Shown here: piece by piece, positions 342 through 36,986 of the stretch | Layout of the letters: each line of letters opens with the position of its first letter | How positions within the stretch are numbered: the stretch's first letter is position 1 | NCBI GenBank assembly: GCA_964016885.1 | Contig: OZ024746.1 | Location: 5,766,001-5,830,000 of the forward strand | DNA: 64,000 nucleotides | Reading direction: 5' to 3' | Source: Eledone cirrhosa | Taxonomy: Eukaryota | Program-made: the position numbers and the translations under genes | The notes under the pieces: model-generated | Told to the model about the DNA's origin: nothing | The model's database searches: none | What the model saw: the letters and a program-made list of their open reading frames with translations, nothing else

Positions 342-900
342 ATATATATATATATATATATATATATATATATATATATATATATATATAATATATATAT
401 ATAATATATATATATATAATATATATATATAATATATATATATAATATATATATATATAATATATATATATAATATATATATATAATATATATATATAAT
501 ATATATATATAATATATATATATAATATATATATATAATATATATATATAATATATATATATATATATATAATATATATATATAATATATATATATATAT
601 AATATATATATATAATATATATATATATATAATATATATATATAATATATATATATATATAATATATATATATAATATATATATATAATATATATATATA
701 TATATATAATATATATATATAATATATATATATATAATATATATATATATAATATATATATATAATATATATATATATATATAATATATATATATAATAT
801 ATATATATATATATAATATATATATATAATATATATATATATATATAATATATATATATAATATATATATATAATATATATATATATATATATATATATA
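342..900. repeat. Interrupted (TA)n tract, ~560 bp, with periodic extra A
   Basis: Direct reading; source of the spurious YI-repeat ORFs. Confidence 0.97.
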
Positions 901-1098
901 GGACAATGTTTAACCCCGACGGCAGAGCTCATACCGTTTTGACGGGTAATTCTGGACTCTGAGTCCAGAAATACCCGTCGAAACGGCTTGAGCTCTGCCG
1001 TCGCGGTTAAACATTGTCCTATTATCCACTCTACAACCCTAAGTATTGAGTACTCTGGTGCGTTATGGTCCATCTGGTTCCTTACCACACTTCCTTTT
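899..1098 (+). mobile_element. Family A fold-back element with half hammerhead (Penelope-like terminus), copy 1
   Basis: ~120-bp palindrome centred at 960 plus ~80-bp tail, between (TA)n; GAAA-CGGC-ttgagctct-GCCG-TC at 980-1002; four more copies in the window. Confidence 0.75.
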
Positions 1099-1693
1099 AT
1101 ATATATATTTATATATATAGTAACAATTATTTAAAGTGACAATTTGATAATATAGATATGTGCGTGTGTATTGGGAACAGATAGATAGAGAAGGATATTA
1201 TATAAAACGTTAAACCTATTTGTTATTCTAAGCTAGTCTTTCAGACATGCAAATGAAAGCCTGTCAATAATATATGTATAATTTGATATATTATATTAAA
1301 TGATTCTATAGAATTCTGGATGAGACTAACTAACACTTTCATGCCATCCCTTTTCAACTTAAAATATTAATTTCTTTGGACTAGACATAAAGCCAAATCT
1401 AGCTGTTATTTTATAGATATAATCGACCTCAGTGTGTTAATATGAGTTGATTGATCAGCACCGCTGAAAAAGAAGGTGGCGTTGATATTAAAAATAAAAT
1501 AGCAACAAATGTGACACTAAGAAGAGCAATTAACCGTTCCTGTCCATATTTCGTTATGGAGGTTCATATGTCCTAATATTAGATTATGTCCTATTGTGCA
1601 TTTACTGTTAAAGCCGCTATTTCTATTTTCCAAATTGTTAAGTGCCACCGTATTCTAATTTCCACGTGCTTTCATATATATATATATATGTAT

Positions 1694-2055
1694 ATCTAGG
1701 GCGGTAAAATTCCCGAGATCCATGGACGAGTTCTCTCCAGCGGTCTCTGTCCCTCATTATCGCTGCCATGTCCTGCGTCTCCAACAGACCAGTGTCTGTC
1801 CTTAGAGCATCAACATATGTCAACCTCGGTCTTCCTCTTCCAGTGTGTCCATGTAGGAGATCCCACAGGAGTCTGAGTGCAATGTCAATTCTGGATGTCG
1901 GTGAGCATGTCCGGCTAACCTCAGTCTCCTCTGTCTCACTTTCGAGCTGACCTTTGGGAGGTTCCCGTACAGCTCTGAGTTCTTTATCCTCAGTGTATAC
2001 TGATTAATGTTCAGAGCCATCCCCAGCGTTCTCGTGTAGCACCCATCCCCCAGAT
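1694..2055 (-). mobile_element. RTE-clade LINE 3' fragment (decayed)
   Basis: DGCYTRTLGMALNI...RRLRLAGHAHRHPE...GRGRPRLTYVD...MRDRDRWR across a frameshift; same family as 6582-7110. Confidence 0.85.
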
Positions 2056-2189
2056 GGTCGATGGGTGCTTTCATATTTAGCGCTATTAACAGCTGATCTG
2101 AGGTCGGATTCCAATGTAACCCCAAAATTCTCCGGAACTTAACTTTGGACGCTTTTACTCTCTCTGCTGCCGCAGTTTGCTACTGCTTC

Positions 2190-2400
2190 CCATTTTATCC
2201 AGTAGGTCATCCTGGATCTATTCATGGCTTAAGGTAGTCTCAAGCTGCAGATAACTAGATGGTGATCAGTTGGCAGCTCAGCCCCTCTCTTAACATGAAC
2301 ATTCAGCACAAACTTGAAGAAATCAGACTCAGTAACAAAATTAATTATTGATCTCTGTCCCTAACTCTCCTTATACCGATAATGCCAATGCCTTACTCAT
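2190..2400 (-). mobile_element. LINE (RTE-type) AP-endonuclease fragment
   Basis: Translates to GQRSIINFVTE...NVHVKRGAELPTDHHLVICSLRL, the xDH motif of APE endonucleases. Confidence 0.7.
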
Positions 2401-33042: not shown

Positions 33043-33186
33043 AACGAAGAAGGTGTGGTAAGGCACCAGATGGACCATAACGCTCCAGAGTACTCAATAC
33101 TTAGGGCAATAGGAAAAAGTTTAACCCCGACGGCAGAGCTCAAGCCGTTTCGACGGCTTGAGCTCTGTCGTTGGGTTTAAACTTTA
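33043..33186 (-). mobile_element. Family A fold-back element, copy 4 (helix II collapsed)
   Basis: GAGCTCAAGCCGT-ttcg-ACGGCTTGAGCTC axis ~33150; family A tail; in (TA)n. Confidence 0.75.
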
Positions 33187-34369
33187 TATATATATATATA
33201 TATTAAAAATGATGTGAGCCAAGGCTATCACATTAAATCCAGTGTTTTAGTATCTACGCTCGTTTATATAGAGGTGATAATGGAACATGAACATGAATAT
33301 GTAAAAAAAAGTCAAACAGAAACAGTTAATTAACAATTATTTACACAAAACACAATACATATAACACCCACGTATCATCAGGAATTATTAAAGGGAGAGA
33401 ATTTAACCAAATACAAGTTTCAAGAATAGAAGCTGTATCAAATGTTGGACATGAGTAATCACATGAAGAAAGAGGTAAGCGAGAACTTAGCGTCATTGAG
33501 CTTTTCTCACCTTATCAAAAGTAATAGAAAACTCCATTATAATTACTTAAACACAGATATGGGAATTAATAAATGCTGTAACGATGTCTCTAGACGGTCG
33601 AATTAATTTCATATCTCATGGGTTCCTGTATATCACAACTTACCATCATACCTGAAAGTAAAGTATGTGACGTAGTATAGCTTATACATGTACTCAGGCC
33701 ATATTTAATCAAATACTTTATCTGTTATTATACATTCTAAATGCTTCACTCATAATTCCCGAAATGTTTCGTGCTATCAGAAGCTTTACTTCAATGGCTC
33801 CATTAACATTTTTAAAGAAGTGTAATCTGGTTTTATCCAACTTATTATATGTGGAAATTAATTCAAATGATCTAAAATATTCTGTGGAGACGAAATTGGA
33901 TTATACGGTACCCATGAAATGTCGTTATACCATATTAAATATAACTTTTAAAAGAAAATAGTTATTTCTGAGCGATAATTTATTTATCTCGAGTATTTAA
34001 GTATAATTTCACATAATTTAATAATTGTTAAGGACGGAAAACTGTTATTTCGTTTAGATTGGAAGGAAATTATATATATATATTTGCTAGTTTTTAAACG
34101 CTGTATTATTTGGAACCTTACAAATATTTCTTAGGATCTTAATAACATAATTTCGAAGTAATTATAATAATGTTTCATTATTATTCAGTGATTTCAAAAG
34201 GTTTTGGAGATTACACTAAAATAGTGAATTTGGTCATACTGGAGCACCGACATTTAGGTTTTGGAATGGAATCTGCTATACAGTTCCTAATAGTATATAA
34301 TGAACAGTGTTTCAATGTTATATGGTGATTGTTGATGGCACGCGTGTATCATTACCTATACTGCGATTC

Positions 34370-34858
34370 TGGGGTTTTTTTTCTCTCTCTCTCTCTTACG
34401 GCTCCCTCATTCTCTCTGTTTCTCCTACTTTCTTTCGCCCCCTCTGTCGTGTCAGTTAACTCTTCCTCACACTTCCACTCACTCACTCACTGTTTCTCCT
34501 CTCCTCACTTCACCCGTTCGTAACGAAAGCAATTTCTCTCTCTCTTACATTGCATTCGTTTGCGAAAGGTCTGGTTTCTAAGCGCTCATATATTCACCTA
34601 GCTTATACTAACAGAATAACTATGAAGCTTGTTTCCTTCCTCTACGGTTAGCTCTACTCTTTGTTGTTTTCCTGTCTCACTCGCTTTACGCGTTTTAATT
34701 GTCCTAATAACTTAATTTAGTTATTATTGCACCGACGTGAGGTATATGATTTTTAATGCAATGAAATATCTATGATCGTCGGCAAATCACTGATGAGGGA
34801 CTTATTTTATTACATGTTATCCATGTGCTACCAGCAGTATTTTTCTCCCCATTTTATC
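34370..34858 (+). mobile_element. Family G element, diverged copy
   Basis: Collinear with the reverse complement of 17281-17790; ends in (TA)n. Confidence 0.7.
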
Positions 34859-36778
34859 ATATATATATATATATATATATATATATATATATATATATGT
34901 GTGTGTGTGTGTGTGTGTGTACTTTAGACCAAGGCACTCCTGTAACAAAGATAACTTATATATAAGTATGGTAAGAGTCGTGTAATACGGGGTCAATATA
35001 CTTGTCAGGCCACCGCGGGACAGTATATGTGAGTGGTGGTGATCGGCAACTGGTATCTCAACCTACTTCTGGATTCATATTTTCATTCATCTTTCTGACA
35101 ATAAAGAACTCTCAGATATGGGAGCCTGCTGATTTAACAGATTTTATCAACATCAAACAAAACCCCTTTCAGTTTGAAGGAACTTATGAGTGGATGATTT
35201 GTATATATTTCTAAACATTACTTTTATTGTGTACTTCTAAATCTATGCATGACTTTGAAAGAATTAACTTTCCCTTAAATTCAATAATTGTTGATGAGTT
35301 GTGATACCTATAGTTACCGACATCAATGTCTACAGAAAACAGGATTTCCCAACAATATAAAATTCTTTAACTAGAGCCTTCACCCTGTGCTTGAAATTGA
35401 GATACGTGACGGGGGAAAAAGACCCTTGTTATAAATACTTTACAGAATTACAAAATTTAGCAGGATTCGACTAATCATCTATGATTTAGATTGAACAATA
35501 AATAAATATATTTCTTCAGCAAAGAAAAAAGACTGAATCATTCTATAATACGTAACAGTGATAGCAGCAATAGAAAAAATATACCATGCAAAAGAAAATT
35601 GTTGTATTAAATTCAGAAAACCTTAGACTTCAGTTTGAATGAGAAATTAAAATATTCAATGATATTAGTCCCTATGTCCATATCAAAAAGGGTATTTGAT
35701 ATTCCAGGGCGCATCAGCAGTTACTACATTTCAAAAGTTTCAAGGAACGAACATTTAATAGTTACTTTCTCTCTCTCTCTCTCTCTCTCTCTCTCTCTCT
35801 CTCTCTCTCTCTCTCTCTCTCTCTCTCTCTCTCTCTTTCTCTCTCTCTAACTCTCCCTCTCTCTCTCTCTCTCTCTCTGTAGTACACACACACACACATA
35901 TATTTGTGTATAATTCGTTTTCGTATTTGTTTTGTAAGATTTTGTATCTGAAAATATGTGTTGAATCAGATATTGTTATACTTTGGGAGTACCATGCTGC
36001 CAATAAAATCACATCCACATGTTCGTTTTACTTCAATGTATTATACATTTCCAGTTGGTTGGTCTATTAATTGGTTAATAGACACTTTTGTTATTTTACG
36101 TCTCTCCATTGTTCTGTCCTACACCATCTTAGTTTTGTGAGCTCTATAATGTGAACATGGGCTGGCAATGCGTTATATCCGTCTGTGTATGTGTGGGTTC
36201 TATTAATTTATTCATACGTTTACTTGTCACAAGTTGGTAGCTTGTTTTATATGAGTCGCTCTGGTTTGTTTTATTAGTTAGGTTCTTATATGTCTCTATA
36301 TGTATTTATCTTGTCCTTACTTACTAGATGTGATGTTATTGCTACTACCCTCATGTTTTCTGATTAGCTTTGCCCGGAGTTCGTTATGTCTGTCGCATCT
36401 GTATTCTGTGTATGAATATGATTTTCGTCTTTTTTTCTCGTATGCTCCCCCATGTTCCATTCTAGTAAGTTGGTGTTGGACTGATCTGTTTTTCCCATCT
36501 GGGAGTTCTCACCAGTAATCATATTTTCTTTCTCCTATGCTACGGGCCGTCTCCCTCAAACTTAGAACACAATAACCCACTCAAATAAAGACATCTTATT
36601 GATGGTAGCATAACCAGAAAATGGGAGGATTATCTCGAAATTGTTGGTGTAATGATATAACGATTAGGTGGGCGTTAAATAGAATAGAGAGATTGACCGT
36701 ATTCAGCCGACCTCAGTTATCAAGGCCCTATCATTCCTTCTTACTCTCTCTCACTCTTATATATATATATATATAAAT

Positions 36779-36986
36779 AACGAAGGAAGTGTGGTAAGGA
36801 ACCAGGTAGACCATAATGCACCAGAGTACTCGATACTTTGGGTAGTAGAGTGGGTAATAGGAAAAGATTCAGGACCCCGACGGCAGAGCTCAAGCCGTTT
36901 CGACGTGTATTTCTGGATGGATAAAGTCCAGAAATAGCCGTCGAAATGGCTTGAACTCTGCTGTCGTGGTCCTGAAACTTTTCCTA
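36779..36986 (-). mobile_element. Family A fold-back element, copy 5
   Basis: Palindrome centred ~36921 (TTCTGGA-tggataaag-TCCAGAA); in (TA)n. Confidence 0.78.

Follow-up and report, generated by a model that had tools for sequence, protein, structure and literature searches.

The 64,000-nucleotide (nt) window analyzed here, from contig OZ024746.1 (C6 in our analysis) of Eledone cirrhosa, carries palindromic elements within (TA)n. We read these, at a probability of roughly 70%, as short head-to-head insertions of the pseudo-long terminal repeats (pLTRs) of Penelope-like elements (PLEs), in which the arms stop at the capped start of the element RNA and each arm is a separate complementary DNA (cDNA). 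All seven palindromic copies listed in a preliminary description made from the sequence (five of family A, one of E, and one of F) were found at their places within (TA)n. The genome measures 3.0 Gb and is rich in (TA)n. It was sampled without bias through 120 evenly spaced 10-kb stretches, supplemented by 246 loci from targeted searches and fetches and by genome-wide pattern counts. A palindrome scan of the random sample placed 118 elements in clusters, three of which (families G, H, and I) bear hammerhead ribozymes. Positions in arms are counted from the G of the hammerhead motif GAAA.

Arm boundaries and the added G

Arms stop at a family-specific base, an A that follows a pyrimidine, at -18 in family A, -25 in G, -25 in H, and -26 in I; in G and H, none of the short arms ends in the stretch from 6 nt upstream of this site to -40. 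Across the boundary, summed depth in independent runs (a rough measure, the runs being contigs of unspecified kind that may include the assembled individual) rises about 25-fold, from ~1e5 to 2-3e6, and falls several hundredfold past the tail end. Among 11 listed opposite-strand joints in these runs, 8 start at 126-130, the boundary base being 127. An extra, non-templated G precedes the stop base in 17 of 25 arms that end at the site, compared to 19 of 151 that end elsewhere (p = 2e-8, leaving out partner-arm bases and loci chosen on their junction, with sites picked post hoc on the same data). The boundaries and the added G are direct observations, and they recur in genome-wide junctions tallied by hand over the first 50 elements listed per family. 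In family G (306 elements), 18 junctions read C-A/T-G, 7 have another C...G spacer, 15 a single G:C, 4 are one-sided, and 6 have none. In family H (350 elements), the counts are 15 C...G, 15 single G:C, 1 one-sided, 1 single A:T, and 18 templated or other. G stands where the template has T or C in 31 of the 50 listed H junctions and in 29 of 35 G junctions with spacers of at least 2 nt. In family A, 100 arms drawn from a list of 3,017 elements have G in 16, A in 2, C in 11, and templated T in 71.

Read-through copies, which continue past the site, have a TATA box (three copies of G) or a TATA-like box (four of A) at -30/-31 from it, judged, like the initiator, against the usual promoter consensus. 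Three marks of a capped start (untemplated G, pyrimidine-purine initiator, and TATA near -30) thus coincide in A and G; H and I have the extra G and the initiator, and the marks are missing from E. An untemplated 5' G is an accepted mark of cap copying in L1 (PMC9341517). The stop base, often with its extra G, is therefore likely to be the capped start of the element RNA. That the boundary of family A is an intron 3' end was considered and set aside, the extra G and the TATA spacing fitting a start site better. Many family A arms run past the site, and the family has therefore at least several ends, with further ones at -21 to -23; transcription starts in family A may be multiple.

Two arms, probably from two cDNAs

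Arm pairing and junction symmetry were also observed directly. Inversions join one arm that ends at the short-end site to one that extends to the tail end in 78 of 85 pairs in family A, 23 of 25 in G, and 35 of 36 in H. Spacer symmetry was read at junctions picked for short spacers (15 + 15 of 306 elements in G, 15 + 20 of 350 in H). Three-base spacers CAG and CTG occur 6:6 in G and 4:4 in H, and one-base H spacers, read along the tail-primed strand, are C in 9 and G in 6. As the H template has T at this position, the 6 G spacers place the cap-like base on the short arm alone. A hairpin or snap-back would place extra bases on the tail strand only, and their equal occurrence on either arm counts against it. 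Junctions also include 1-2 nt overlaps, templated insertions, and hybrid E/A elements. Short overlaps, templated insertions, and hybrids are expected of end-joining. A 10-nt variable subfamily block is common to both arms in 47 of 71 pairs, compared to 10.5 when pairs are shuffled, and most of the others differ by 1-2 bases, which suggests a shared RNA or a shared source locus for both arms. The arms are likely separate cDNAs, for which the two ends of the cut target would each have served as primer.

Some loci bear on arm pairing in other ways. The hybrids L060 and L099/L108 unite a short-end arm of family E with an arm of family A. At L020, L026, L076, L080, L093, L095, and L109, both members of a long inverted pair run past the start site; where typed, these pairs comprise one short-end and one tail arm. 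At G000:C160:287303-299496, four identical family E junctions lie ~3 or 6 kb apart, as one insertion amplified in tandem.

Self-priming at or near the RNA 5' end would be the closest alternative, and we consider it unlikely. Following the general idea published for inverted pLTRs (PMC3846280), a tail-primed cDNA would fold back or be ligated as a hairpin, its second strand would be cut at the short-end site, and later deletions would blur the center. This would account for the union of one short with one tail arm and for the variants common to both, and the hand tally of family A has G on both arms together in 5 of 50 elements, where ~1.3 would be expected if the arms were independent. However, it predicts a cap-derived C and an added A on the tail cDNA only, whereas the bases observed are symmetric, and hybrid elements unite two families. 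Snap-back also makes the short-end arm a copy of the tail arm, which therefore could not be the shorter of the two; of 71 family A pairs, 22 have a short-end arm that is longer by at least 3 nt and 20 a tail arm that is, and 15 of the 71 junctions leave a loop under 3 nt. Decidedly unlikely, too, is a boundary set by reverse transcriptase (RT) stopping at an RNA structure, or by the end of a processed, uncapped RNA, with the G as a general untemplated addition; the arms might still be separate cDNAs. In the predicted fold, the boundary of family A does fall within the apical hairpin of helix II, on its 3' strand, family A ends spread from about -12 to -23, and family E lacks the G. Yet the extra G is specific to the site, which in G, H, and I lies on a strand that would be unpaired once RT has passed; RT gets through the stronger helix III and lower helix II; and the spacing of the TATA box suits a start site.

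Several points weigh against a capped start copied into two separate cDNAs. Family I lacks a TATA box at -30 and family H has only a weak one, and in family E the boundary is blurred (-47 to -64), with no consistent extra G in 10 junctions. Many A arms run 1-5 nt past the site, exact matches being 16,029 for templated T (read-through copies included) and 5,050 for G, and C precedes the site in the 11 of 100 A arms noted above. Start sites were chosen after viewing the same data, and both start site and cap are read from DNA junctions. The identity of the two arms could stem from later gene conversion and their asymmetry from later deletions at the palindrome center.

Inversion points, hammerheads, and copies in the window

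The GAAA/helix III/UH motifs noted in families A, E, and F proved to be genuine hammerhead halves rather than chance, because read-through copies of all three carry the whole ribozyme, a parent structure that was observed directly. Non-inverted masters with an upstream core and helix I had been predicted and do exist, but in family A the core is a U3-A8 variant (described in PMC4209133) rather than the expected CUGANGA. Family A parents have this variant, in which N7 varies, together with helix I, a ~60-nt helix II, and helix III; a parent search with CUGANGA had given 49 matches, mostly chance junction bases, and was discarded. Family E parents have the near-canonical core C(C/U)GANGA, and family F parents have CUGAUGA (L140, L142) or a one-letter variant (L124, L130). 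In family G, 95% of cells are paired across 22 arms (selected on the core pattern), one helix I pair is changed on both sides in 6, and the helix II loop is variable. Core boxes, three helices, and a NUH site are present in G, A, and E. The predicted type I hammerhead identity rests on motif, pairing, and one covarying pair; no hammerhead family of Rfam was matched in any search, one of which returned the best 150 of 241 rows. In family H (L012, L043, L082, and others), helix I pairs and the first core box reads CAGAAGA, with A at position 4, in nearly all copies.

According to the preliminary description, the palindromes of A, E, and F all pivot on hammerhead helix II, the cDNA snapping back there, self-priming the second strand, and inactivating the inserted copy. 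Only family A inverts inside helix II. In family E, the core spans -43 to -37 and the arms end mostly upstream of it, between -47 and -64; at least one arm keeps the whole core in 9 of 10 short-spacer inversions (by eye). The E copy of the window does pivot in helix II as described, but it is the exception among the ten. In family F, the axis lies in the 5' strand of helix I, between the two core boxes. Fifteen listed arms have an identical junction, and differences between the two arms fall at fixed sites; the palindrome is therefore one inherited event, and the right-hand core of the window copy was lost through a deletion common to other copies. Families G, H, and I invert at the start of helix I and do not share the predicted clustering of axes in helix II loops. 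The core survives in one arm or both of 12 of 16 inversions in G, 6 of 6 in H, and 3 of 4 in I, so the copies are not in general inactivated ribozymes. One further cluster of the palindrome scan, when inspected, had no GAAA motif close to its axis. Cluster 4 (L158, L183, L233, L234) comprises TA-flanked palindromes of like architecture with no obvious hammerhead near the axis; it serves as a natural control and may belong to Naiad, a group that lacks the ribozyme.

Snap-back on helix II is thus very improbable, even though the axes of family A, and of the window E copy, lie inside this helix. In family A, 114 of 128 arms end at or 3' of -21 (a few values at 21-25 being still inflated by the subfamily reference), and 8 of 128 reach -27, arm-length survival serving here as a stand-in for a direct count of loop retention. 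The loop (-22 to -29) and the 5' strand are therefore missing from A copies, which contradicts a fold on helix II. Unpaired A arms stop within the same range of positions as paired ones, and E, F, G, H, and I mostly invert upstream of the core. It is scarcely credible that the palindromes are fixed DNA transposons of the miniature inverted-repeat transposable element (MITE) or Helentron type, close to the MITE/Helitron structures that the preliminary description had named as a refuting outcome. A fixed, inherited palindrome was found in family F. In A, E, G, and H, however, axes and junction bases vary copy by copy, unlike inverted repeats that are identical among copies, and the parents of A and E run on into open reading frames (ORFs) for RT and a GIY-YIG endonuclease, which contradicts a DNA transposon for these two families.

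The copies in the window are as follows, including a family G palindrome (8122-8324) that was missing from the preliminary list and keeps the core in both arms.

901-1098, plus strand: family A head-to-head copy; short-end arm 901-958, 3-nt spacer C-T-G 959-961, tail arm 962-1098; extra G on both arms
8122-8324, minus strand: family G head-to-head copy; each arm with a putatively intact type I hammerhead; at the inferred start site, a C-T-G spacer (8256-8258)
8361-8550, minus strand: family A copy; tail arm on the left, axis 8495/8496, short microhomology overlap of the arms
15730-15897, plus strand: family A copy; helix III missing from the left arm, deleted between two direct repeats of 6 nt
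16779-16846, minus strand: family H single arm; ends approximate
16857-16987, plus strand: family G single tail arm; ends approximate
17042-17251, plus strand: family E copy; arm ends at -36 and -15 from GAAA, an outlier within family E
17909-18490, no strand assigned: family F palindrome with a long C/T-rich body; inherited; axis near 17970 in the helix I 5' strand; right end approximate
31555-31670, no strand assigned: older family G palindrome
33044-33184, minus strand: family A copy; axis on the GAAA tetraloop itself (33150/33151), not in the hairpin just 5' of GAAA as had been described
36780-36984, minus strand: family A copy; tail arm on the left, short junction insertion near 36922

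Tandem arrays lie at 11535-14900 and 43000-52900, with units of 48 nt and 45 nt. Inverted pairs at 5961-6162 and 21786-22076 belong to another abundant short repeat that does not share the TA targeting, and further palindromic or inverted-repeat elements outside the named families lie at 6453-6578 and 8665-9094.

Element class, proposed mechanism, and known systems

As judged from their sequences, families A and E are pLTRs of Hydra-clade PLEs, which bears out the earlier view that the palindromes are hammerhead-bearing fragments of Penelope-like pLTRs and are linked to an RT/GIY-YIG ORF. Beside the family A pLTR, this ORF is known from broken copies only, comprising an ORF start after the tail (L084), fragments with RT motifs (L366, L089), and an endonuclease end upstream of a pLTR (L062); for family E, an ORF start was found. 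In L084, the order is start site, half ribozyme, short end, and tail end, with an ATG ~90 nt further on. By eye and with reference to section 11 of PMC8557442, the family A ORF has DKT, CxCX5C, CxxC, and CxH motifs, with RWG replacing RWK and the CxCX5C linker preceding GIY-YIG; family E has RWK and DKT. The Penelope endonuclease-positive (EN+) layout of a pLTR, an optional tail, and an inverted 5'-truncated copy is present, as is the (TA)n target of the Hydra clade. An initial assignment to Neptune was dropped against the definition of the Hydra clade (PMC8557442). A Pfam search with the protein of the element gave no match, and a protein search returned nothing useful. GIY-YIG was found on 31% of the members of look-alike atlas clusters, and the clusters nearest to the protein are mostly molluscan, where phylum is recorded. 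Families F, G, H, and I are provisionally placed with PLEs by shared architecture and hammerhead only. In the flanks of L083 and L085, pieces of other CxCX5C GIY-YIG elements lie beside family A copies; elements nest in each other's TA flanks.

We propose that the pLTR promoter yields a capped sense RNA and that the RT/GIY-YIG protein makes a cut in each strand of a TA repeat. Of the two target ends, one would then serve as primer at the short-end site and its counterpart at the tail-end site; both sites would lie close to the 5' terminus of this RNA, probably of a single molecule. Both cDNAs would reach the cap and add a C opposite it, often with an A, and their 3' ends would be trimmed and then joined by host end-joining, which would close the gap. 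Initiation at the 5' pLTR would result in short copies and initiation at the 3' pLTR in long ones. In family A, transcription would start inside the enlarged helix II, so that RNA made from this promoter would be without the ribozyme's 5' half; a start at the first base of helix I, as placed for G, H, and I (less sharply for E and F), would leave the ribozyme whole. Whether PLEs as a class integrate double-ended, with one capped sense RNA copied twice from two fixed sites and the cDNA ends joined by the host, seems to us an even question. If they do, the inverted pLTR and the one-sided tail of the whole class would be explained, with sense RNA as the template; tens of thousands of mini-copies would be strong-stop-like products of 5' pLTR initiation; and only read-through RNA of family A, whose promoter would lie inside helix II, could form the ribozyme. 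The junctions provide a large natural record that points to a sense, capped RNA and two cDNAs, and exact predictions follow from them, both for cap analysis of gene expression (CAGE) and for the in vitro system already in use. They also account for an abundant class of small palindromes, which automated annotation might take for MITEs or microRNA hairpins.

The element itself is of a known kind, and the specific mechanism of the preliminary description is not supported. PLEs are already known to have inverted 5' copies and tails on one side only (PMC8557442, PMC8969392), and the origin of the inverted pLTRs is stated to be unresolved (PMC8557442, PMC11167929). With the C-terminal EN+ PLEs of the Hydra clade, the families share RWK, DKT, CxCX5C, a C-terminal GIY-YIG, hammerheads, (TA)n targets, an inverted 5'-truncated copy, and an optional tail (PMC8557442). 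In contrast to that clade as described there, the copies here are mostly head-to-head pairs of 100-200 nt with a sharp inner boundary and a cap-like G, and the family A tail is ~80 nt rather than 30-40 nt. Minimal hammerheads of PLEs have the same type I fold, an extra base after A9, and, as in family A, a U3-A8 core (PMC4209133); they differ from family A, whose ~60-nt helix II appears to hold the promoter.

Poseidon of Anolis (PAc) resembles the present families in vitro in having two internal RT start sites that define the tail, with both target strands cut and extended on an uncleaved RNA template, and a predicted dimer (PMC11167929). The main text of that study offers no explanation of inverted copies and no cap copying, and leaves the second-strand steps open. 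Penelope of Adineta vaga has head-to-head inverted pLTRs, junction palindromes, and TATA and initiator-like sequences in the pLTR; the published guess there is self-priming, possibly on an antisense RNA template (PMC3846280), whereas the present junctions favor two cDNAs made on a capped sense template. In Drosophila virilis, the published start is situated 46 nt upstream of an intron whose end falls at helix I. Our account of PLE inversion differs from those published and is apparently undescribed. Within the literature consulted, which also took in PMC2377424, PMC13282606, and bioRxiv 10.64898/2026.07.22.740005 (most subscription papers, including the 2005-2006 PLE reviews, lying outside it), no paper was found that ties the points at which PLEs invert to twin priming or to a capped start.

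The closing comparison is with L1, which shares two-strand priming with 5' inversion. In L1 twin priming, both target strands prime cDNA, and the 5' inversion is joined by microhomology; the internal position at which the second primer anneals varies, and each cDNA covers a stretch of its own. The cap-derived extra G is a further likeness (PMC9341517). Unlike in L1, both cDNAs here would begin at fixed positions and cover one and the same stretch as far as the 5' end.

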